Below are positions 1-32,533 of a stretch of DNA of 64,000 bases, piece by piece. The stretch comes from a virus: positions 32,001-96,000 of the IMG/VR virus record IMGVR_UViG_3300020391_000290. One strand, 5' to 3'. Made by a program: the position numbers and the translations under genes. Position 1 is the first letter of the stretch, and each line of letters starts with the position of its first letter. The notes under the pieces were generated by a model. The model did no database searches and was not told the origin of the DNA. It worked only from the letters and a program-made list of their open reading frames with translations.

Positions 1-2
1 AT

Positions 3-389
3 GATACTCTAAATAAACAAAATTTAGAAAATTTCGAGCAACAACGACTAATTACAATGATAAACGATGCAGAACTAAGTGCTGAAGAGAAGCAACGTAG
101 ATTTGCGGAGATTTTTCAAACTATGACTAGTTACACTCTTGCAAATATTGTAGGTAGTATTAGTAAAATAGTAACTCCGGATGGTGTAGTAGTAGCAAAT
201 GAGTCTCATATAAACGACTATGTAAGAAATTCAGAAAGACAGTTTTACGAAGCTCTTAAAAATTATTTAGAAGGAATAACTAAAGCAATTCCAGAGAAAA
301 ATGTTTCTATAAAATGTGCAGAATGCTCTAACGATTATACAACTCCTTTTACGTTTGATCAATCAAATTTTTTCGCATTCGCCTCTTAG
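3..389 (+). CDS. gp26-like baseplate hub/tail assembly chaperone, C-terminal part (5' truncated by window)
   Basis: Frame open from position 3; C-terminal CAEC zinc knuckle followed by FTFDQSNFF, typical of T4-like gp26-family ends. Confidence 0.65.
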   Translation, partial: DTLNKQNLENFEQQRLITMINDAELSAEEKQRRFAEIFQTMTSYTLANIVGSISKIVTPDGVVVANESHINDYVRNSERQFYEALKNYLEGITKAIPEKNVSIKCAECSNDYTTPFTFDQSNFFAFAS

Positions 390-460
390 CATTATCTAAT
401 CCTGAGATTGAGAGGCTTTTACAAGGATACGAAAAAACAGTGAACGAACTGCGTCTTAAC

Positions 461-604
461 ATGACTAAGATTGCTTGGTTTATGAGAGGAGGAGTGACTA
501 TGTCCGAACTTCTAGACATGCCACAATCTGAATACAAACACTTTAACACAGTTATTCAAGAAAATTTAGAACTTAGTAAAGCTGCGAAACAAGTAATAGT
601 TTAG
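461..604 (+). CDS. gp51-like short protein (MTKIAWFMRGGVTMSELLDMP..., 47 aa); probably also the -1 frameshift extension of the upstream gene
   Basis: Translated by hand, absent from ORF track. WFMRGG...ELLDMP motif; reading frame is open back to at least 365. Confidence 0.6.
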   Translation: MTKIAWFMRGGVTMSELLDMPQSEYKHFNTVIQENLELSKAAKQVIV

Positions 605-988
605 GAATGAACTACGTTCATTCGTTCTTTTCACTTCGTTCAATCACTTTTTTTGAGTGAAACGAAACAGCTATCATCTCGAAGTTAAGCTCATACTTCA
701 CCCGTTGCCGGGTGTAGTAATAAATGAAATCGCCATCATCTGCGTGTATCACTCATCTGTTATAAGAAGATTACATTTCTGTACGGAGGCGGAAACCCGT
801 GGACCCCCTACTTCAGCCTTCACTGATAGTCTCGGAACCTTAACGCATCATAACAGCAATGCGTTTCTAGTTGAGGTTGTATCTTTTCACAGAGCCTCAT
901 CTTTTGTGCCTAAAGTTGGTTTTACTCGTGTTAACGACGGTTTAATGCGTAGACCGTAAACGCCAAATTTTTATTATTGTAACACTAT
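605..988 (-). ncRNA. Candidate large structured non-coding RNA
   Basis: Intergenic; 130/300 G+C over 661-960 (43%) in a clearly AT-richer window; several hairpins; GCAA tetraloop and G-U wobble pairs occur on the minus strand. Confidence 0.5.
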
Positions 989-1411
989 CTAGCCATTTAA
1001 TTGTTTATTGATTATGCCCTTTTGGTGTACTCTTACTCTAATGTGCCCGTTGTACCAGTCATCTGATTCTAGTACTTTATATCTAAATTGTTCTCTTGCT
1101 TCTACGTACGATAGTTCTGCTTTACTAGAACAGAAATATAATATCTTACGTTTGAATTTATCTTTGCCTAATGTTTCGACGTCTTCTGCTAATTCGTCTG
1201 ATGAGCCATAGTAGTCACGCCAATCACTTTCTACTAATGAACGACGTTTATTTTTTCTGCCTTTAAGGGGAGGTTTAGTTTTTTTAAACTGTGCCAGTTT
1301 TTTGCCAATGTATTTTCTATTGTTTGTTGTGTTTGTAATTAGATATACAAACCCAATTATTCCTTCTGGTATTTCTTTGACTATTTTGTTCTTGTAATAC
1401 CAGTTTTCCAT
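989..1411 (-). CDS. GIY-YIG endonuclease (Seg/EndoII-like), ~140 aa
   Basis: GFVYLITNTTNNRKYIGKK matches GIY-YIG; YYGSS, conserved E (YVEAREQ) and WYNG. Likely start is MENWYYK at 1411, not 1498. Confidence 0.85.
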   Translation of the reverse strand: MENWYYKNKIVKEIPEGIIGFVYLITNTTNNRKYIGKKLAQFKKTKPPLKGRKNKRRSLVESDWRDYYGSSDELAEDVETLGKDKFKRKILYFCSSKAELSYVEAREQFRYKVLESDDWYNGHIRVRVHQKGIINKQLNG

Positions 1412-1433
1412 GTTATATTGTATATATCTTTTA

Positions 1434-1607
1434 TTACATACTATTCTTTTTTTCTTGAATCTCGGCACGTCTTGCCTTAGCGAGTTTTTGTATTTCACCT
1501 AATGCTTTTCTTGCTCTTGCGGCTGCGGCTTTAATTCCTTTAGTTTCAAATGCTTCTGATTCTTTTAAGTATGCTTCGTATGCAGTAATTATTTGTTCGT
1601 GTGACAT
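1434..1607 (-). CDS. Histone H1-like Hc1-family basic peptide (57 aa)
   Basis: Hand translation MSHEQIITAYEAYLKESEAFETKGIKAAAARARKALGEIQKLAKARRAEIQEKKNSM; strong RBS TAAGGAG upstream; KGxKAAAARARK motif. Confidence 0.75.
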   Translation of the reverse strand: MSHEQIITAYEAYLKESEAFETKGIKAAAARARKALGEIQKLAKARRAEIQEKKNSM

Positions 1608-1617
1608 TGTAGTCTCC

Positions 1618-2649
1618 TTACCATTCTGTTACATGATGCTTATCATGTAGTTTTGCTTTTATACATTTTGTTTTGCACTCTATGTTGTCAAATTTTTTAA
1701 ATTCATTATTCCAAAAACTATCTTTTATTATATTATCGATTGTAGTATTATGCAAATTAAATTTTGTTTGTGCTAAAGAAATCATATTTTTATTATGTGG
1801 ATACCTATTAGCAGTCCAACAACAAGGATAAAATTCTCCTGTGGCTTTTAAGAATACTCCTTTATTACCTATGTAACAAAGTGCAGGGTATTCATTATTC
1901 TTATTTAATTCTAAAGCACGTTCTAAGAATATTTTTTTAAGATCTTCGCCGGGTCTAGTTTTAGTGCTAATTTTATATTGTTGTCTTTCAAATCTATGAC
2001 CTTTAGCAATAAGAAATTTATTTGTAGGTTCTAACAAATCGTTGTTGCTATATGCATCTGGGTAAGTACTTCCAAATTTTGTACTTTTAGTAAGTTGCCA
2101 ACAATCAAAATTGTTATTAATTGCAATATTGTTAATATCTTGTAAATTATTTTCGTTAAATCTAAATGCTATAGTGGCTACTACAGTATATGTTATTTTA
2201 TTATGTTCTCGGAAAGTTACTATACCTAGCATAATACTTTTCCAATCGCAGTTTACACGATATTTACTGTTACTTTCCTGATCCCACCCATCTAAACTCC
2301 AGTGTACTTCGTCATGTTCATTTAGTAACATTGCTAATTTTTGCCACCAATCCGCTTTTTTGTAACTACCATTGGTAATTATTAGCAGTTGCAATTGAGG
2401 ATTAATTTCTTTTATCCAATGTACAATTTGTAAAAAATCTTTTGCATATATTGGATCACCGTCATCGCCACAAAAACTAATTTTACGTATCTTTTTTATA
2501 TGCGATTCGCCTATCTGTGTACGGAAAAAATCTAATGTAAGTTGGCGATTAAGGAGTGTTTCTGGCATTTCGACTCTGGTGCATCTAGGACATTTTAATG
2601 TACATATGCTACTTACTTCTATATGCCAATGGTCTAATGCTAGTTTCAT
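1618..2649 (-). CDS. Radical SAM protein with C-terminal SPASM/twitch domain
   Basis: CTLKCPRC (CxxxCxxC), GDDGDP, TNGS, SLDG; C-terminal GEFYPCC...CKTKC. Confidence 0.9.
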   Translation of the reverse strand: MKLALDHWHIEVSSICTLKCPRCTRVEMPETLLNRQLTLDFFRTQIGESHIKKIRKISFCGDDGDPIYAKDFLQIVHWIKEINPQLQLLIITNGSYKKADWWQKLAMLLNEHDEVHWSLDGWDQESNSKYRVNCDWKSIMLGIVTFREHNKITYTVVATIAFRFNENNLQDINNIAINNNFDCWQLTKSTKFGSTYPDAYSNNDLLEPTNKFLIAKGHRFERQQYKISTKTRPGEDLKKIFLERALELNKNNEYPALCYIGNKGVFLKATGEFYPCCWTANRYPHNKNMISLAQTKFNLHNTTIDNIIKDSFWNNEFKKFDNIECKTKCIKAKLHDKHHVTEW

Positions 2650-4409
2650 GCAATTTCTACATCCGTATCGTAACTTGTAAAGCCGTTTTCTTTTACTACT
2701 TTTAAAACATTATTTACACGCCCGATGAGCTCATCTTTATGCGAAACTAACCAAACACTTTTATTACGTTCTCTGCTCATACGTTTTAGTACTGCCATAC
2801 TATTCTCCACACCAGAACTATCCATACCACTATCAACTAATTCGTCTATAAACAGTAAATTAATTGGCTGATATAAACTTTCCCAAACATCACGAAATGC
2901 CCAACTTAAACTTAGTATTAGTCTATTTCGTTCACCTCTACTTAAATTATCAAAGTCCAAATCTCTGCCTAGTTCTTGTATTTCCACAGTCAAGTCGTTC
3001 TGAAATACTACAGTATGTGGTAGTCCAATTGCATTTAAATATTGATCTAGTCTTGTATTTAAGTATGCTAAGTTCTGATCTATAATCCTTTTACGTATAA
3101 AGCTATCTTTATTTGTAAGTAGTTTTAATAAAAATTCTTGATGTTGTTGTGTCCTAGTAAGTTCATTTATACTATCCCAAGTTATTTCTTGTACTGCAGT
3201 AGTTTCCATATCTGCAATTTGATCAGTATAAGGATCATTTTCATCTTGTTTATTTTGTAATTGAAATTCTAGTGTTGATAAACTTGAACGATGATTGTGT
3301 GCATCATTAACACTATCATAAAAAGTACGCGGTTTATTTGGAACTGTTTGTTTTTGTTGATCTAGTTCTTCAATGCCTTGTTGTAATTCTGTAAGAAATG
3401 TATTAGCATCTTTGTACTCTTTGTCTGCTTTTATAATTTGTTCTTTGTGTGTTTCTAAATGTGCAACACTTTGTCCGCAACTACTACAAGTTCCTTCGTT
3501 TATATCGTCTAATGCCTTTTTAGTACGTTTAGCGTCACGTTCTGCTCTGCTTATTTGTGCCTGTAGTGAGGATGTGTCTTTAGTTAACTGTATTTGTGCA
3601 TTGTTAAGTGTATGCCAATCATTTAATTCTGTATGTGTTCTTAGTTCTAAATTAATATCTACGTGTGCTAAATCTTCTATTGCAGTTTTTAGTTTTGTGA
3701 TATCGTCTTCTTTTTTCTTTTGCCAAAGTGTTTGTCTACGCTTTAGGGCTTGAACTTGTTCTACTATTTTACCGTTTGCATCTTCTACTGCTTTTATACG
3801 AAACTGTTCTTCTTGTATCTTGTTCTTAGTAACACGTACCATTTCTTTTAAGTTTTCTGCTTTTTCACTAAGAATAGTTATGCCTAGTAATTGTTCTATA
3901 ATCGCTCTTTGATCATTTTGTCGCATACTTAAAAAAGGCTCACTGTAAGTATTTAGAGCCAATACATGTTTAAACATTGCATGACTCATACCTAACAGTA
4001 GCTCTATTGCTTTTTGTGTTTCTCTACTATCACCTTGAGCATAGTCATTTGCTTCTTGTTCGTTATTGTTTATGTAAAATTTTAAAACATTGCTTTTACG
4101 ACCTCGTTCTATACGATACTGCAAACCATCTTTTTCAAATTCTACAGTAACTAACATATTTTTACCGTTAGTCTTGTTTATTAAATTATCTTTACGAATG
4201 TTTGTAAGTGCATCACCATATAATGCATAACTTAGTGCATTTATGATTGTAGTTTTGCCTGTACCATTTCTAGCACCTGCATCTCCTCCACCTGTATCTA
4301 AGTTTTCACCTAGCACAAGCGTTAAGTCATTTCGATTAAAGTCTATGGCTTGTGTAGTATTACCTACACTCATAAAGTTTTTTACTGTAAGAGTATTGAG
4401 TTTAAACAA
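2646..4409 (-). CDS. Recombination ATPase subunit, gp46/SbcC/Rad50-like
   Basis: KNFMSVGN, Walker A NGTGKTT, zinc hook CSSC within coiled coil, signature LSRGE, Walker B LLFIDE, H-loop VSHK. Confidence 0.95.
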   Translation of the reverse strand: MFKLNTLTVKNFMSVGNTTQAIDFNRNDLTLVLGENLDTGGGDAGARNGTGKTTIINALSYALYGDALTNIRKDNLINKTNGKNMLVTVEFEKDGLQYRIERGRKSNVLKFYINNNEQEANDYAQGDSRETQKAIELLLGMSHAMFKHVLALNTYSEPFLSMRQNDQRAIIEQLLGITILSEKAENLKEMVRVTKNKIQEEQFRIKAVEDANGKIVEQVQALKRRQTLWQKKKEDDITKLKTAIEDLAHVDINLELRTHTELNDWHTLNNAQIQLTKDTSSLQAQISRAERDAKRTKKALDDINEGTCSSCGQSVAHLETHKEQIIKADKEYKDANTFLTELQQGIEELDQQKQTVPNKPRTFYDSVNDAHNHRSSLSTLEFQLQNKQDENDPYTDQIADMETTAVQEITWDSINELTRTQQHQEFLLKLLTNKDSFIRKRIIDQNLAYLNTRLDQYLNAIGLPHTVVFQNDLTVEIQELGRDLDFDNLSRGERNRLILSLSWAFRDVWESLYQPINLLFIDELVDSGMDSSGVENSMAVLKRMSRERNKSVWLVSHKDELIGRVNNVLKVVKENGFTSYDTDVEIA

Positions 4410-5194
4410 TTTCTAACATCCTGTGTGTTTTTAAACCAATCCTTGTAATCATAAGGAGGTATTTCTTTAATATTATACTGTCTTTCTAACCAATAAATCA
4501 AATATCCTTGGTCATGCAAAGAATAATGTGTATCAAACTCAAAATTTATATTATTGTTCAAAGCATGTTTTACTAAATTTACTAAATCTTGTGCCTGATA
4601 ATATTTGTAGTTGACTTTTTTAAATTGTTCGTGTAAATGTTTGAACTTATGTAAATCGCACTGTCCAAAGTGAGGTTCAAGACTATCTATAATTTGTTTT
4701 TGATTAAAAAATAAATCACTAATATTTAAATTTAAAACATCATCTACTGGTTGCCAAGTATTAAGATAGAAATCTGCGTGTTTGTCACTATGATGATAGG
4801 TAAGACTAAAATTTTCACGTATTTCATAATCTTCTAAATCGAAACTAAATTTTGAACGTTCTGCTTTTTCTTTACAAGTTTGATATACAATACTTTTTGC
4901 ATTGTTGTCTATACACATTCGTATAGTGTTAGGCATTCCACGATCTATATAATCATCTATTCCACTATCTATCAAACAAATACTTTTTTTGCCTTCAAAG
5001 TTATAATAATTCTTTTTAATGTAAGGTCGATTATGTAACCATGTTTTCCAGTGTAAAGGATAATCATGGCTATTACCGTTTTTACTAAATGTACTATTTT
5101 CTTGTGGACAATATGCATCTTCGAAACATGTACTAATCATCTGTAACATATAATGCCCAAATCCACCACTTGGGTAGTGTATATAATATATCAT
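4382..5194 (-). CDS. Hypothetical protein (possible degenerate sulfotransferase/P-loop fold)
   Basis: 270-aa ORF overlapping both neighbours; N-terminal YPSGGFGHY loop. Confidence 0.55.
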   Translation of the reverse strand: MIYYIHYPSGGFGHYMLQMISTCFEDAYCPQENSTFSKNGNSHDYPLHWKTWLHNRPYIKKNYYNFEGKKSICLIDSGIDDYIDRGMPNTIRMCIDNNAKSIVYQTCKEKAERSKFSFDLEDYEIRENFSLTYHHSDKHADFYLNTWQPVDDVLNLNISDLFFNQKQIIDSLEPHFGQCDLHKFKHLHEQFKKVNYKYYQAQDLVNLVKHALNNNINFEFDTHYSLHDQGYLIYWLERQYNIKEIPPYDYKDWFKNTQDVRNCLNSILLQ

Positions 5195-7367: not shown

Positions 7368-8180
7368 TTAGATAGGATTAGAACTTTTTGCAATTTCGTT
7401 CTCCGTTTGTCTTGTATAACTAGGATTAAGTCCAGCACTTTCTAATATATCGTCTCGAATTGCTTGATTTTTCTTTTCTAAGTTTAGCACACGAGTAAAA
7501 CTATTTGTGATTGCGGCAGTATAGTAAGCAAATGGATTTTCGCTTTTACTTTCGTCAAACTGCAACCCAATTTGTGTTAATTGTAGTAGTGCTTGGCTAC
7601 GCATTTCGTCGTTATATGTATATCCGCGCCAGTTTGATCTTGTCCCATAACGTTCACATAGTTTCATATACATTCTAGCAAGTTTACTAGTAGTTTTTCC
7701 ATGCGTTTTACTAAAGTTACCGTTCTCTAGTCCACCCTCCCAATGACTTTTGCCCACAAGTACTGGGTTATCTTCATCATCTAACCTAAAATGTTGAAAT
7801 GGTGGAAAGTTACACTGTACGTGATGATCTGCTACTGTTTTTGGATTTTTTTTACGACCTGGATGTAACGGTATATGGTCATGTGTCATAATCCTAAACA
7901 CCACATCTTTTTTATCAATTTTTTTCCAGTCAACGGCAAACTCTGCTTGTTTAACTTTTTTACCTTCAGCACGAGCCTCTTCGTATGCTATTTTTTGCAT
8001 ACGATCAGCTTGATTTCTTTTAGCCTGTGCAACTGTCCTAATGTTAATTTTTTCTATATTTGGTAGTATCATATCATAGACATCGTCACCGTCTGCAATA
8101 AAACTACTGTATGTACTTTTACTTTTGTGTATTTCCTTTAACAAATCGCGATTGTTAAGGTAATTTTTTCTTTTTATCAT
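7368..8180 (-). CDS. gp55-like late-transcription sigma factor
   Basis: NYLNNRDLL start; NWRGYTYNDEM, FDESKSENPFAYYT motifs; adjacent to gp47/gp46 as in T4-like phages. Confidence 0.85.
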   Translation of the reverse strand: MIKRKNYLNNRDLLKEIHKSKSTYSSFIADGDDVYDMILPNIEKINIRTVAQAKRNQADRMQKIAYEEARAEGKKVKQAEFAVDWKKIDKKDVVFRIMTHDHIPLHPGRKKNPKTVADHHVQCNFPPFQHFRLDDEDNPVLVGKSHWEGGLENGNFSKTHGKTTSKLARMYMKLCERYGTRSNWRGYTYNDEMRSQALLQLTQIGLQFDESKSENPFAYYTAAITNSFTRVLNLEKKNQAIRDDILESAGLNPSYTRQTENEIAKSSNPI

Positions 8181-8206
8181 ATTTGAGGATTCCTTTTATA
8201 TGCGTA

Positions 8207-8236
8207 TATTATACAGCCTATAAATATACTTATGCA
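8207..8236 (-). promoter_or_regulatory. Sigma70-type promoter for the gp55-like gene
   Basis: Minus strand TTGCAT-N18-TATAAT followed by AAGGA RBS. Confidence 0.5.
8219..8226 (+). promoter_or_regulatory. T4-type late promoter TATAAATA
   Basis: Exact T4 late consensus ~35 nt upstream of the baseplate operon. Confidence 0.75.
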
Positions 8237-8260
8237 ATATAAAAATAAGGTTTTTTGAGA

Positions 8261-9127
8261 ATGGCATTTGATTTAGGTAGCAAATTTACTCGTAGAGCAA
8301 AACAATATACTACAGATACAGTAGGAAAAGCATTACCAGGCAACGATCCTATTAGTAAAGTTGGCAGAAATATCTTAAATGCTAGTGGTAACAGGTTACT
8401 TCAAGCAGGACTAAATGAACTAGGAGCAAATACTCCTGGTAGTTTCTTAAATAATATAGTAACTGCAGTTTTTAGAGACAATGATACTCGTGTGAGATTA
8501 TCTTTGAGTCCAGGAGCCAATATACTGTATAAGACCGGACGTGGATTCGAAGGCGGTATTCAAAACAAAATACTTGAACCTTTGATAGAAACAGACGGTG
8601 TATTGTTTCCTTATACACCAACAGTAAGTGTGAGTCATACTGCTCAGTATACAGGAGTTCATCCTGCACACAGTAACTTTATACAACATAGTTACAATGC
8701 AAGTTCAGTGGATACAATTAGTATTGATGGATATTTTACTGCAAATAATGCAGATGAAGCAAGATATGTTTTTGCAGTATTACATTTTCTTCGTAGTGCA
8801 TATAAAATGTTTTTTGGTTCAGATGCTAATAGAGGCACACCTCCACCAGTACTAAGACTAAGCGGATATGGCCCTTTTAATTATAACAGTGTGCCTGTGG
8901 TTTTATCTAATTTTAGTGAAATAATGGCTGCAGACAGAGACTATATAGAAGTGCCACTAGCATCTTCACCAGATGCATCAACAAAAACTATGATTCCAAC
9001 TTATATGAACATGACTATGACACTTAATCCAATTTACACCAAAGAGCAGATATCTAATTTTAGTTTAGAAAGTTTTGCTAGAGGTGATCAAATAGGAAGA
9101 CCAGGTGGCGCTGGAGGATTTTTATAA
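8261..9127 (+). CDS. Baseplate/tail-tube initiator protein (gp48/gp54-like)
   Basis: FPYTPTV, KMFFG, GTPPPVLRLSGYG motifs; first gene of the baseplate operon; ATG at 8261. Confidence 0.65.
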   Translation: MAFDLGSKFTRRAKQYTTDTVGKALPGNDPISKVGRNILNASGNRLLQAGLNELGANTPGSFLNNIVTAVFRDNDTRVRLSLSPGANILYKTGRGFEGGIQNKILEPLIETDGVLFPYTPTVSVSHTAQYTGVHPAHSNFIQHSYNASSVDTISIDGYFTANNADEARYVFAVLHFLRSAYKMFFGSDANRGTPPPVLRLSGYGPFNYNSVPVVLSNFSEIMAADRDYIEVPLASSPDASTKTMIPTYMNMTMTLNPIYTKEQISNFSLESFARGDQIGRPGGAGGFL

Positions 9128-31200: not shown

Positions 31201-32533
31201 ACTTTTTAGTAGTCCTCCTGATAATGGAGCAAATATCCATATATTTGTTTTTAATCAAGCTACAGACAGAGATGCACCAAGTAAGATAGCGTTACAGACA
31301 CAAAATTTGACTGCAGGAACATTTACATACAATTTGACTAATACTGTAAATTATGCACAACCATTTACAGGGAACACAGTAGTGGAAGTTGATAACGTAA
31401 GATTACGTCCTGCTAACAGTAAATATTATACTGGAGATGGAAGTACTACGCAATTTGTGATTGCAAAAACTGCAGGCGAATCTAACATAGTAAATATTAA
31501 TGATATTGGTGTTGCAGTAATATCTAAGACAACAGGACAAACATTAAACGCAGTGCGTGATATAGATTACACACTGACTGCGGGTACTGATAACATTACA
31601 ATGACTACTCCTCCGGCAGATGGTGATAAAGTTATTGTCTATAACAATGCATCTGCAGAATACTCAATTAGTGCAACTGGCACTGAAATTACAATTGCTG
31701 ATAGTGTAAGTTTCACTAGTAGTAGTGTTATGAGGGTAAACACTTTTTCAAATCACGATTCATATCGTATGCAGACAAAAGTATTTGTAGGCAATGGATC
31801 CGGCATAGGAACTTATACTTTAGATAGAGCAGTAGCAAATGTTAATAATTTTTGGATAACACTTAATGGCAGTAGATTGCATCCAGGAGAATATATCACA
31901 AACGGAAGTAATATAAATTTAAGTGATACTATACAAACAACTTTAACTGGCTCTAGTTTATTAGTAGTAACACATATAAGCGAGAATACAATTCAGCCAA
32001 GCACTGGATTTAGAATATTCTATGATATGAATGGAAACACAGAATACTTAAGACTATCCAAAGATTCTACTACTGAAGTGACTGCTACTGTTTTGCCAAC
32101 AGATACAAAAATTTATGTAGATGATGTAACTAAATTACCCTTTGCTACACCAGAGAGCGAATTTCCAGGTGTAGTGTTTATAGGCGGAGAACGTATTACA
32201 TATCATGAAGTTAGTTTAGATGAAAATTATATAACAAATATAAGAAGAGCTACCGCAGGCACTGCAATGGTACAACGTATTACACCAGGATTTTTGGTAG
32301 TAGATGGTGGTAAAGACCAAACATTACCTAGTACAAATACACATACTAACACCTGGTATGATACAGGTACTAGCACTGCAGCTGATGGGCTAGGATTACA
32401 AAATAGTTCAACACTAAATGCTAATTTCTTAAAAGATAGTGAAGCACAAATACCTAATTTTAGGTTAGAATTAAATGCTTTCGAATATATCATAGGAGAC
32501 TATGTAGAGGATGGCTACATAGAAATAAGATAA
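19262..32533 (+). CDS. Giant (4423 aa) baseplate/fibre scaffold protein with FG-GAP beta-propeller
   Basis: Single uninterrupted ORF coupled to gp6-like gene (TAATG); RQNYQLEP and DFDKFVNYGEYFWLP N-terminal motifs; seven FG-GAP-like repeats; GDG-type and GSGY repeats; VKPYKT. Confidence 0.75.
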   Translation: MALRKSSALLPSIFQTSKNSKFLNATMDQLISEPNLQRFSSFIGRKFAPNFTVGNGYITETSAERQNYQLEPAVVYSNTSKQIESLSSYTDFVSALSYNNVDTTNHSDLFTQEFYNYSGFVDFDKFVNYGEYFWLPAGPDSVQVFNSVVDTEKTYTVYTSGTEFKFDSITADPNRAVILARGGTYKFTLNETGNPFWIQTEIGTSGISAYSTSISTREVLGVTNNGATNGTVTFTVPMVDAQNEQINAIQAANPDFATDLTYSQIHNQPYKTFIDTHGGIDKQTVINGKSLVFVNTTTAASAWDQGSNFDAYGFDDNDNPFDQTTTLDMSIRYDVYNISIDTIGGVETIVLSRSIDWPIGQKVKIKQGDGYGNREFFKGGDGLPLLIKPYTAGIDTLYYQDGVNATQFGTIKLVEIDQVSPIDVENDILEKLVYTSDNGVTFTNGLKIEFNSDVTPTTYAGREYFVEGVGQPQGISLTPVDELLTPESYTVSTSDGFDSVAYDTGGWDGTLNAPTSQDYILINRNSPDRNAWSRGNRWFHRQVIEATAGYNNYTAEIDDSARAKRPIIEFNTGLELFNMGITSKAPVTVVDTTQTDAFSNVNGSTGYFADGIDIKQDNTIIFTADSAINKNVYRVDMVNQDSDLTTNEIISLVLIDTISDKDCVLSTLGATNQGKQYWLDEDTWKTGQQKTKLNQDPLFNVQDPEHVSFSDTTKYPSSNFIGSKLFSYKRNNNNALDTILGFGLSYQNFSTLGDIVFENNFDTDTFQYTKSTGNTNVIVRSGHVHQWNQKGVRTLDNGWTKVLENSNQYQIVIHEVAESELYSYEIGASVDTTKTIQPLQVFVNSKFIAPSKYTHLIQNDREYVSFTDKLSVDDVVTIKFYSNTKATNSYYEIPSNLENNASNATFDTLTLGQVRNHVTTFSQYIKTLSGSSPGASNLRDTNYKAYPGDIMQHSAGMITPMYAFTNSEANLLKSITFVKDEYTKFKNSFIDNINKLDLDLTDPSKCVDDIIKTIAGKKTSALPFYYSDMLPWGTQKSQVEHIVDDTSEVEFEFTTQFDLTTLSARSVLVYKNTELLIEGKDYTLDSIEAKVKLTTNSVNTSNIGLVVNDIIKIVEYTDTNGSFCPPTPSKLGLYYKYEPKKYMDNTYANSKTVVQGHDGSIWVGYGDIRDDIILEFEKRVYNNIKTQYDTNLFDYAEILPGYFRNTLEEFNEANNITRSYFGEWALKNKVLVQKNTISTDEDLFSWNYTTSVNVLNNQRIPGYWRGIYRWFFDTDTPHTTPWEMLGLSVKPIWWNNRYGDAPYTRGNTVLWEDLRDGKLYSDATSSIFTTVANRKRANLMSIIPVDEQGSLRAPGEFLTQGTTITNNKNSWAYSDGSPAETAWTRSSEYPFVIQILAANIKPAKYGSYMFDTNLLERNGQYDQILQKSKSYRPTILDLKMHGTILSDGEIQRAEGYNQFISEYIRSTGFGINDTIAKFNNLELNLSYPVAGFTDKKYLKVVAESVTPSSQSENIFIPDEDINIFLKKSLPLERIVYSGVQIIVRDNGYEIQGYDRQNPFFKIIPSVSAKDPLQHTVGGTTYFEYEQYENIIANIPYGTIIANRQQIFDFLVSYQRYLLSKGFIFDSITSRGDKNDFITGGKEFAFWTDQNWETNSVIVLSPCSQTLKINRTLATVDDIRITGKPKDANGSIINPKFYDVTRIDNFLEIQVDNENTQLYSLQLDPIQYEHALVFSNKTIFNDIIYQPELGNRHSRLKLVGSRSGDWNGTLHAPGFFLNENKINNWQSYVDYKKGDLVNFQNQTYSAKYSIDGSNVFRFDDWNTINNMQTGLVKNLTNKASQFKDFFELDNLNLEDGVDKLGKGMIGFNQKDYLQGLGLDDVSQVKFYQGMVKQKGTSSAINKLIDAELTNLDQTINYFEEWAFRVGEYGSIDSNQIVETIIPEENATNNPTVIHFHADGELPTDTDNDHYHVQRKDLYRVPNNYNGDLFASRDVNTVKTNDLDTAGYARLDDVDFTLFDANDLTSLSSNIQALGKGKKIWIAKDTTNTWSIRRVDETLSTVTKIQSTGNGYLIYTTDINHGLVKDDYVVVRAQQPIGKVAKIFEVSSPNSFTLADTTTEAEITNVNIPMYKLSNVRYTQASDISKFTPVSGWDNKELVYVDKDLNGKWNVLQNTRPWTTTGIKTTASVTADDKLGSSIKINANSTLAIAGAPDQGSGAIVPYVRSEGGALLESNSVIVSTIGDSVDSFGASVAVGVDYVAVGAPDTESSKGAVFTYYVDATGTFNRRPSIRPNALGSSAKFGTSIAMSGNGRYLFVGSPGDNKIYSYTLVTIPTSSIVSHTITSNGGTNYSINFTPISQESLSLVDENGKVYLPNKDFTWNGSQIVFASGPSASLQIVVRQLDYFAFSSMLDPFDSMSGDDYGFSIDCDYYGRNVIIGAPNADVPNSDSTVISNAGEISVQSQVVQQFAGDGITKAFTTIETLQTKIFVEVDGVLQTETDNTDVPVENDGSSIGFYTRSGKTITFKYIPSSGARIVVYTGTYIEKQKIYQNMTGQSPTLNEQFGYSVAIDSNGTTIAVGSPGEDETNPNTGSVFIFQDSGKNYGLVTTNTPHNQTAGDTFYIDNRLITVTDSADNPTNLASDINNANIPGVTASVNLTGAIEILSTNTEPLNKLTINPGGGSMFLRDNVFEIFKFTQKINHPHAKQNENFGRAVVFDKYLDIGSGNYGTRNLVISSDKASTILGIGFDIESNSNKANYLQSTTTFDNGGTTFTDKRSQSGAAYVYELLSANSASITNSDKMVFAQQLTSTNIGLLDQFGFAVAFSDKRILVGSPQDDIVKGSTTITNSGSVYEFNNNLRTKSWSILRNESDRVDVTQINRVALYNKKSNNIDVFLDYIDPAKGKVAGVAQSELDYVSSQDPALYEKNLWSYKYKNRLWWDTSTVHFLNVEQGDLDYRKNYWGTMFPGSTIDICEWIESNVPPSEYTGEGTVRDPNFFTVANVYNSSSDSTKIKYYFWVKNITSVPTEAEFRTLSADSVRRLIEDPKAQGLPYVAIIDKDAIALYNCKDYFADNDAVFSVNYDVVKNEGVLHSEFELFGKGNTDQDIPTRLYNKLVDSLAGADSVGNIVPDPFLSEVEKYGVLTQPRQSMFVNRASAIKVLVQYCNSIFVTQPFARNSSMTKLLSSENIPTVNSGEYNVSVDTLAERDYLNTLILTTGYKVLVLEDENNNNYWTVYTLNADKTWSLSNIQGYNTADYWSYKTYYKSGYDATTVPNFQVQKEADLLTLTTAVEGDIAKVTSNDEGNFSMFSLQSDGTWDEVIIERGTIQFNNSLYSFTTLNTSFQATGFDNDGFDFGSFDKVPTEEIRQIINALKNDLFTDTYKIHMNELFFRLMEYALNENTFTTDWMFKSSFISVAHKLRSLNQYNTFKYDNTTFIEKFIEEVKPYKTTIREYISKYDKLDTFEGDTTDFDVHAFYDEELQLFRKPSGQYTGDETKWTQGLNKPWGENYGYKLDSISLVNAGTGYISDPTVTISAPQMSGGIQATATAKTNGDVIISITVTNKGSGYTQNPTINITGSGTGVKVSPRLVNNTTRSFDTTIKFDRITYSSSVKDWVKNTSYGLNDIVAYQNTTTLTQEVYKVTTAFTSGETFSTEDNTGTSVMAVYADENFTNTADRIGAYYYPTSGMIGDDLELLQKGTGYLGNKVTGPGFDQNPGFDSSNFDVIGFDNFEIDEEGLAVLAGVDTVFRGTEFANDKLGSEYLVSGYVVSGYISKLSVGLDPESIIIDGSGFVDTYNSHAPEELIPGRVYDTLDMEVYTHPGHDYEVDGGAPDIQYTSFSNFVDSFSKGYLAPGYLEGDYVALTETTISQRDFQYGDPTKSSEDYEYLIVYQNDERIYNFTTNYTDKTVTLSNPILATDIIHVYAYSQVGEKIVGEYTEIGDGSSISFVLGNTPELTKQTLVYVDGVETSVTIGSQDGRTTILFSSPPDNGANIHIFVFNQATDRDAPSKIALQTQNLTAGTFTYNLTNTVNYAQPFTGNTVVEVDNVRLRPANSKYYTGDGSTTQFVIAKTAGESNIVNINDIGVAVISKTTGQTLNAVRDIDYTLTAGTDNITMTTPPADGDKVIVYNNASAEYSISATGTEITIADSVSFTSSSVMRVNTFSNHDSYRMQTKVFVGNGSGIGTYTLDRAVANVNNFWITLNGSRLHPGEYITNGSNINLSDTIQTTLTGSSLLVVTHISENTIQPSTGFRIFYDMNGNTEYLRLSKDSTTEVTATVLPTDTKIYVDDVTKLPFATPESEFPGVVFIGGERITYHEVSLDENYITNIRRATAGTAMVQRITPGFLVVDGGKDQTLPSTNTHTNTWYDTGTSTAADGLGLQNSSTLNANFLKDSEAQIPNFRLELNAFEYIIGDYVEDGYIEIR

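Follow-up and report, generated by a model that had tools for sequence, protein, structure and literature searches.

Does the gap behind a small phage nuclease gene hold a functional RNA and, if so, does this RNA belong to the nuclease? The window, i.e., the whole stretch of 64,000 nt that was analyzed, covers positions 32,001 to 96,000 of the IMG/VR record IMGVR_UViG_3300020391_000290. A first-pass annotation, made from the letters alone, had described positions 605-988 as a large structured element without credible ORF and had proposed there an RNA co-transcribed with the adjoining GIY-YIG nuclease gene, possibly acting as a ribonucleoprotein partner of the enzyme or as a ribozyme. The gap is indeed free of any credible ORF, being flanked by an ORF on the plus strand (440-604) and by the GIY-YIG ORF on the minus strand (stop codon at 991-989). 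Our analysis indicates that positions 994 to about 633 of the minus strand are a structured non-coding RNA gene of about 330-385 nt.

The source record (133,896 nt, with a completeness estimate of 37%) derives from an uncultured marine giant T4-like phage. The cultured gp26 relatives closest to the window are the giant phages Vibrio 2.275.O, RaK2, 121Q/PBECO4, PA5oct, and Atu_ph07, and gp26 identity to cultured phages was 22-33%, all values being below 60% (96 records). Two frames of the plus strand converge with the RNA, a gp26-like baseplate hub gene (3-389) and a -1 frame that encodes a gp51-like tail and ends at 604 (ORF 440-604). A TTTTTTC run is present at 369-375 (+), upstream of the end of the gp26-like frame at 389, and both frames are compatible with a -1 relation (3 mod 3 = 0, 440 mod 3 = 2). 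Homologues of this gp51-like tail come after gp26 in the related loci L095 and L103. The hairpin at 605-623 is common to both sides of the convergence point; with its 8 pairs and, behind them on the plus strand, a T-rich tail, it scores as a terminator for the gp51-like frame.

On the minus strand, a single-domain SegE-type GIY-YIG nuclease of 140 aa is encoded between an ATG at 1411 and position 989 (PF19835, E = 1.4e-35; phrog_447), its relatives aligning from residue ~29 of a longer GTG frame. Its domain is of the homing type, with matches to PHROG homing endonuclease families at 1.6e-12 and 3.2e-11, and a search with this protein among solved structures returned no relative. The gene occurs in one copy in the 133,896 nt. 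Beyond it, the locus continues with an Hc1-like gene, a radical SAM gene, gp46 and gp47. The Hc1-like gene is a 57-aa ORF at 1434-1607 (-) that matches the histone H1-like protein Hc1 (PF07432, E = 2.2e-11); most relatives have it at the same syntenic place beside the nuclease gene. Positions 1618-2649 (-), between gp46 and the Hc1-like gene, encode a radical SAM / SPASM-like protein, and relatives carry one or two such genes, in variable versions, at the same place. Between gp46 and gp47, a 270-aa ORF at 4382-5194 (-) belongs to no Pfam or PHROG family. The ARAGORN search for tRNA and tmRNA found 0 genes in the 64 kb.

The RNA had been placed on the strand of the nuclease, which proved correct, with a start at 988, just after the stop codon, which did not, as the RNA starts at 994 and its 5′ box lies over the stop codon. 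The whole gene, which begins with the 5′ box and closes with the 3′ hairpin, was delimited at 633-994 (-) by matches to the family HMM and covariance model (CM), these ends being predicted ones. The CM match in the window covers 689-842 with 127.1 bits, and the block that is near-identical among relatives extends over about 994-690. A coding interpretation was considered and rejected: among 21 family members no ORF is conserved, the longest stop-free run switching strand and frame, and the variable columns show no 3-periodicity (41/37/47). Folding of the single sequence gave -94.6 kcal/mol for the minus strand (z = -1.39, 11 of 100 shuffles as good), and the plus strand was likewise not significant (z = -1.82). 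Since single-sequence folding is no better than chance, the structural case rests on the comparison of relatives. In the alignment, G.U cells (94) outnumber A.C cells (25), therefore the folded strand is the minus strand.

Two alignments were used for this comparison. In the first one, 40 diverse sequences were aligned by MAFFT with structure ignored. There, 74.7% of the cells were paired vs. 63.1% in shuffled alignments (0 of 500 shuffles reached this value), and the covariation score was 0.280 vs. 0.131 after shuffling, with slid controls at 0.112 or less. The second one, A6, contains 69 distinct sequences aligned to the core covariance model R1 (144 positions) and is thus fitted to the structure of the model; with this fitting, 90.8% of the cells were paired vs. 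70.9% in shuffles (0 of 500), the covariation score was 0.462 vs. 0.154, slid controls did not exceed 0.103, and 20 of 25 pairs showed compensatory changes on both sides. The supported helices are H1, B, C, G, D, D2, and E, to which a pseudoknot (PK1) is added. Among them, helix G, PK1 and helix H1 were absent from the first-pass annotation.

All elements described below are on the minus strand, in 5′ to 3′ order. The RNA opens with the conserved box GGCUAGAUAG (985-994), which overlaps the nuclease stop codon (TAG, 991-989); in relatives of the L177 type, the same box forms the loop of the first hairpin of the catalogued motif Polynucleobacter-1 (RF01718). The 5′ domain that follows (928-985) is reduced in the window, where it gives no RF01718 match. 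It consists of helix H1 (985-980/933-928) around the hairpin ACGGU/ACCGU (957-953/941-937). By eye, the pairing of H1 is retained with different letters in 8 clades. The inner hairpin, which had been proposed at 957-937, keeps its pairing with changed letters in L090 and L092, and the stem proposed to enclose it (966-956/925-916) is lost in L082 and L086 (both by eye). A hairpin F (909-919), with the conserved loop AACUUUA at 917-911, is tentative. This loop could form a second pseudoknot with 842-836; the two segments are complementary in most clades, yet they were paired in 74.4% of the cells vs. 72.2%, a value reached by 58 of 500 shuffles. The second pseudoknot was dropped, its covariation not being above that of the shuffles.

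Hairpin B (873-898) pairs GAGG with CCUC around a conserved internal CUCUG..CAACC; it is 100% paired with compensatory changes at 3 of 4 pairs, and the helix anticipated at 899-872 is thereby confirmed. The same applies to hairpin C (842-865; anticipated at 864-842), which is 71% paired on the structure-blind alignment with double changes at 6 of 7 pairs. The whole 6-nt loop of C, CUGUUA (856-851), pairs with UAACAG at 762-757 to form PK1, which was detected by a covariation scan and is 68% paired on the structure-blind alignment, with double changes at 5 of 6 pairs. A three-way junction (766-814) follows, in which helix G (814-811/769-766) encloses hairpins D and D2. In A6, helix G is 88.5% paired with 4 of 4 pairs compensatory, hairpin D (808-804/789-785, inner part 799-797/792-790) is 93.8% paired, and the GNRA hairpin D2 (783-780/775-772) is 85.7% paired with 4 of 4 pairs compensatory. 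A single helix had been drawn here at 811-781; its GGGGG/CCUCC part stands as hairpin D, but its outer GUA/UAC arm does not, this strand belonging to the separate covarying hairpin D2 (783-772).

Downstream of the junction, the variable hairpin V (724-756) exposes in its apical loop the first copy of the word AGAUGAU (741-735). Its outer stem is 65% paired; its inner stem shifts among clades and is unsupported (36.5% paired at fixed columns). Hairpin E (696-717), capped by the GNRA loop GCAA, is followed by the invariant GAAGUAUGA. With 95.2% pairing and double changes at 9 of 9 pairs, it confirms the GNRA-capped helix predicted at 719-694. The 3′ segment AUGAGC..CGAGAUGAUAGC (673-694) contains the second copy of AGAUGAU (679-673), for which an enclosing stem is unsupported (38.6% paired). 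Finally, a 3′ hairpin with an A-rich loop (633-668) is seen both in the alignments and in the single-sequence fold, relatives reading CGCUUCGCUC ... GAGCGAAGCG at this place.

With the nuclease protein as query, 80 loci were obtained, among which 9 carry the element directly behind the gene at 76-91% identity and 1 more matches it weakly. An exact 21-nt pattern from hairpin E was found in 30 IMG/VR contigs. When loci were fetched through gp26 alone (38-48% protein identity, except 72% for L151), 55 of 80 contained the RNA, encoded on the strand opposite to gp26. The 25 misses mostly have little sequence past gp26, and at least four loci (L171, L173, L200, L221) with a full 3.5-kb flank gave no RNA match. 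In 75 of the 80 distinct RNA loci gp26 converges downstream of the RNA, the other 5 being without gp26 in the available sequence. The RNA family occupies a single fixed locus, in uncultured T4-related giant phages of aquatic origin.

Other searches delimited the family. By blastn, window positions 1-3000 and two diverged RNAs gave no match to the RNA in 50,697 phage records. When searched with the HMM and the CM, the gp26 loci of Vibrio phage 2.275.O, PA5oct, and Atu_ph07 showed nothing close to where the RNA would be expected, and the top hit (16 bits, E = 0.43) was located elsewhere. In PA5oct (L232), the ~1.5 kb at 7555-9069, flanked by the region of the hub gene and by a 'RusA-like' (PDDEXK_15-type) gene, contain only four tiny annotated ORFs; neither HMM nor CM matches this stretch, which is the place of the RNA in the uncultured relatives. 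A shorter 15-nt pattern recovered 38 new loci and no family member among them (best matches of at most 48 nt at E ≥ 0.002). Six of these contigs (L113, L114, L125, L129, L136, L142) share a different conserved element, with the same 15-mer in a GC-rich, hairpin-like context, which lies outside the present family and may be another RNA motif. A degenerate pattern of hairpin D on genome contigs gave at least 120 stretches, chance hits in GC-rich genomes of which the family HMM matched 0 of 120. In one clade (L100, 1836-2162; L103, 5040-5411; L111), a membrane protein of 108-123 aa that belongs to no Pfam family is encoded downstream, on the strand of the RNA.

The first-pass annotation could not assign the element to a known family, and this holds for the window itself but not for all of its relatives. 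Against Rfam 15, the window gave no match at the gathering score and none at E ≤ 10 over positions 350-1250, only chance-level hits. Relatives with the same core do match RF01718, Polynucleobacter-1, with their 5′ 130-140 nt only: L177 with 107.1 bits, L212 with 39.6 and L198 with 32.7, the last one falling below the gathering score of 37 bits of this 141-nt model. Both the window (127.1 bits) and the RF01718-bearing L177 (91.3 bits) match the core model R1 over its full length, and both share the locus and the strand relative to gp26. Judging from these sequence matches, the catalogued RF01718 motif is the variable 5′ domain, about a third, of a larger RNA. The conserved core of ~230 nt, with B, C, the pseudoknot, the three-way junction, E, and the duplicated word, is absent from Rfam 15. 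In a table row, Polynucleobacter-1 is given as a likely RNA and possible cis-regulator from Burkholderiales, found in fresh water or estuary (Weinberg et al., 2010, PMC2864571). A survey of viral RNAs published in 2023 lists 8,495 candidates of 29-151 nt (PMC10690425). We found no further description of the RNA in the literature; pieces of it may be listed in the supplementary tables of these two papers (PMC10690425, PMC2864571).

In the window, no good promoter separates the RNA from the nuclease gene. Positions 498-1423 are covered by RNA-library contigs from three studies; one contig, from a relative, spans the whole RNA (558-970), and three bridge the nuclease stop at 989 (942-1115, 827-1025, and 749-1060). 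Such contigs show neither strand nor ends and could reflect DNA carry-over, and the parts of window positions 1-3000 left uncovered carry no weight. With these bridging contigs and no intervening promoter, the co-transcription that had been anticipated is likely here, the RNA probably being transcribed together with the GIY-YIG gene in the window phage. In L100, a promoter-like TTGACC-18-TAAAGT lies 35 nt before the 5′ box, as a hint only, for in the promoter scans the counts of such sites did not exceed those in shuffles.

No other segment of the region is as conserved as the RNA, which surpasses both gp26 and the nuclease in this respect. Between L095 and L110, it is 97% identical, compared with 69% for gp26 DNA, and the upstream genes are unrelated; along this pair, identity is 25-45% upstream, rises to 95-100% across RNA nucleotides 0-300 and falls to ~60-75% thereafter. 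Between L104 and L091, identity is 99% for the RNA and 65% for gp26 DNA. Instead of purifying selection, recent gene conversion beside the nuclease gene could account for such islands of near-identity.

Of the 62 distinct RNA loci with a flank of 700 nt or more, 61 have a nuclease gene no farther than 1.1 kb from the 5′ end of the RNA, a count that is partly biased, as this set includes loci chosen via the nuclease (the 80 fetched through the GIY-YIG protein). When only those gp26-anchored loci are counted in which the first HMM search had matched the RNA, 37 of 45 have such a gene, the other 8 having too little flank. The association with a nuclease gene suggested in the first-pass annotation is thus a near-constant property of the family, and in 56 of the 61 loci no more than 240 nt separate gene and RNA. 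Homing endonuclease genes are usually sporadic. An adjacency this constant could reflect a functional tie.

However, the identity and the orientation of the neighbor are not constant. Among the 62 loci, GIY-YIG genes are on the strand of the RNA in 51 and on the opposite strand in 4, PDDEXK_15 genes are on the same strand in 5 and on the opposite strand in 1, and 1 locus has no nuclease. The PDDEXK_15 assignment (PF24608) was obtained with E values of 2.4e-24 in L095 and 1.6e-23 in L100. L095 has PDDEXK_15 at the place where L104 and L110 have GIY-YIG, their RNAs being 94-97% identical; L100 has PDDEXK_15 where L103 and L111 have GIY-YIG, and RNAs across both swap sets are 87-97% identical. 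The GIY-YIG gene is inverted in L103, L111, and the arrangement-B loci, in many loci with nothing else inverted. In the L156 clade (4 loci with one RNA sequence), the 600 nt upstream are occupied by a different ORF that belongs to no Pfam family. Conversely, loci L012-L021 contain the GIY-YIG gene and never gave an RNA match above 15.5 bits, and PA5oct has a PDDEXK_15-like gene between gp26 and gp46, with the RNA undetected by HMM and CM. As both nucleases are single-domain proteins with no recognized DNA-binding domain, there is room for an RNA cofactor. Nevertheless, the change of nuclease family (PF19835 or PF24608) and orientation beside 94-97% identical RNAs with the same word speaks against the role of ribonucleoprotein partner or guide that had been suggested.

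Each RNA contains one lineage-specific word of 7-9 nt in two copies, about 50-62 nt apart, that flank hairpin E. Copy 1 lies within the loop of the variable hairpin V, and the 3′ strand contains copy 2. In many clades, the word segments have the form RUGAC, 6-9 nt, then YCU/CUC-R-GAUGAW. The words themselves differ among clades (AGAUGAU in the window, GGAUAAU, AGCUGAA, GACGAAA, AAUCAAG, and others), with both copies changing together: in the 60 of 69 CM matches that entered this comparison, the two segments share at least 6 nt in 60 of 60 and at least 7 nt in 54 of 60. L095, with its PDDEXK_15 gene, and L104 and L110, with GIY-YIG genes, have the same word AAUCAAG, which argues from sequence that the nuclease is not the reader of the word. 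The word has no consistent intramolecular partner, no complement or consistent third site in the flanks of the 60 loci, and neither complement nor enrichment in the 133,896 nt of this genome (37% complete). On this extent of sequence, the search for a guide-like segment matching DNA, which had been suggested as a check of the guide idea, was negative.

At a probability of about one half, we favor the reading in which this is an autonomous folded RNA that acts in trans and shows its word twice to a sequence-specific reader, the nuclease being a neighboring cassette. A stable, compact, and pseudoknotted RNA would be made from a fixed locus between gp47, gp46, and the small nuclease on one side and the convergent gp26/51 on the other. 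In the window phage it would be produced by read-through from the GIY-YIG gene, whereas a promoter of its own seems to serve it elsewhere. The RNA would then act alone and in trans. Its invariant core, i.e., B, C knotted to the downstream strand, the three-way junction, and E, holds both copies of the word ~60 nt apart, and both would be read by a putative sequence-specific reader, which may be a nucleic acid or a pair of proteins. The nuclease would be an interchangeable cassette, perhaps a homing-type gene attracted by the high conservation of the sequence, or else a resolvase-like member of the gp46/47 block, and would not be RNA-guided.

We consider it unlikely that the RNA is instead a cofactor, regulator, inhibitor, or substrate of the small nuclease, with the word as interaction or targeting element. 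Such a tie would account for the adjacency in 61/62 and 37/45 loci with its short gaps, which outlasts gene inversion as well as the swap to an unrelated nuclease family, and it is consistent with the bare catalytic domains of both nucleases and with the RNA-library contigs that bridge gene and RNA. Yet the same word and 94-97% identical RNAs stand beside two unrelated nuclease folds, the different upstream ORF of the L156 clade and the apparently RNA-free nuclease genes of L012-L021 and PA5oct count against a tie, and neither the 134 kb nor the flanks of 60 loci contain a complement of the word. A structured 3′ UTR that would stabilize or terminate the transcript of the nuclease operon, without any trans function, is highly improbable. 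In the window, the RNA does begin at the stop codon with no promoter in between, and two hairpins are present at the 3′ end; but in the arrangement-B loci, L100, L103, and L111 the RNA and the nuclease gene point away from each other and the RNA is behind no same-strand gene, and more than 300 nt of near-invariant knotted structure go far beyond what a terminator needs.

A ribozyme, whose catalytic knotted core would process itself at two identical sites or act on another RNA, is also improbable; a degenerate group I-like fold would be one version of it. No Rfam ribozyme or intron was matched at E ≤ 10 on 900 nt of the window or at E ≤ 1 on 7 diverse relatives. No exons are apparent, the flanks being a stop codon and a convergent gene, the promoter-like site of L100 precedes the RNA, and by eye no P3/P7-type pairing holds across clades. 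In favor of a ribozyme are the size, the pseudoknot, the GNRA loops, the three-way junction, the near-invariant single-stranded junctions (UYCCG, GAAGUAUGA), a conservation exceeding that of essential neighbor genes, and the two identical sites, which might be processing sites. Selection on RNA pairing that is strand-specific, with G.U wobbles, together with a word present in two copies only, makes it decidedly improbable that the RNA primes or marks a replication origin (e.g., by an R-loop) at the border of the recombination block, the word being an iteron-like DNA site. The fixed place beside gp46/gp47 and a resolvase-like nuclease would suit that role, as would a direct repeat that changes in step among lineages, which resembles initiator-binding sites.

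Large knotted RNAs under strong selection are rare, and the solved ones are usually ribozymes or ribonucleoprotein cores. So far, all that is catalogued is the variable 5′ third, in some of the members, as an orphan motif since 2010. The present analysis provides a gene with its ends, eight kept helices with a covarying pseudoknot, and a covariance model of the core. It also raises the puzzle of one short word that occurs twice and changes in step. The function of the RNA can thereby be tested with synthetic RNA and no cultured phage. If the link with the nuclease is functional, a new kind of RNA-dependent nuclease would be at hand. It is unlikely that the locus encodes a new phage ribonucleoprotein, in which the RNA would give a bare nuclease domain its recognition via the duplicated word, or its activation, or that it represents a new class of large ribozymes near-invariant in giant phages.

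Among known systems, Polynucleobacter-1 (RF01718) is the one with a direct match, through the 5′ domains of relatives. It shares the aquatic metagenomic origin, and its table row lists it as a possible cis-regulator (PMC2864571). The window keeps the GGCUA.AUA box, which corresponds to the first hairpin loop of the model. Unlike in the model, the 5′ domain of the window is reduced to one helix and a small hairpin, with no match even at E ≤ 10; at the position of the GGCYAAUAUC loop of Polynucleobacter-1, the window has its box at 994-985, and the strand that follows pairs downstream (H1), not with the upstream strand.

Kinship with group I introns or HEARO, evoked in the first-pass annotation, finds no support in Rfam. 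A group I intron was rejected, as no Rfam intron matches the window or 7 relatives (E ≤ 1) and there are no exons; a run resembling a group I R element (838-823) is absent from other clades. In HEARO/OMEGA loci (IscB, TnpB), too, a large structured RNA has a nuclease gene as its neighbor. Nevertheless, the folds here are GIY-YIG or PD-(D/E)XK instead of RuvC/HNH, no Rfam HEARO match was obtained, and in place of a terminal variable guide there is a word duplicated inside the RNA, independent of the nuclease family.

GOLLD, ROOL, OLE, and raiA are large orphan non-coding RNAs of bacteria and phages, some of them phage-carried. The present RNA resembles them in being several hundred nt long, multi-helix, pseudoknotted, and strongly conserved. 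It differs in that none of them is matched in Rfam and in that it is confined to one syntenic locus of one phage group. In phage T4, segB is a freestanding homing endonuclease gene located in the tRNA cluster, beside stable-RNA genes. Unlike in a segB-type arrangement, the site here is occupied in 61 of 62 loci and not sporadically, and no nuclease-free target allele was found. The likeness is in the arrangement itself: a SegE-type GIY-YIG gene stands beside an extremely conserved RNA gene, and nuclease family and orientation turn over while the RNA stays constant.
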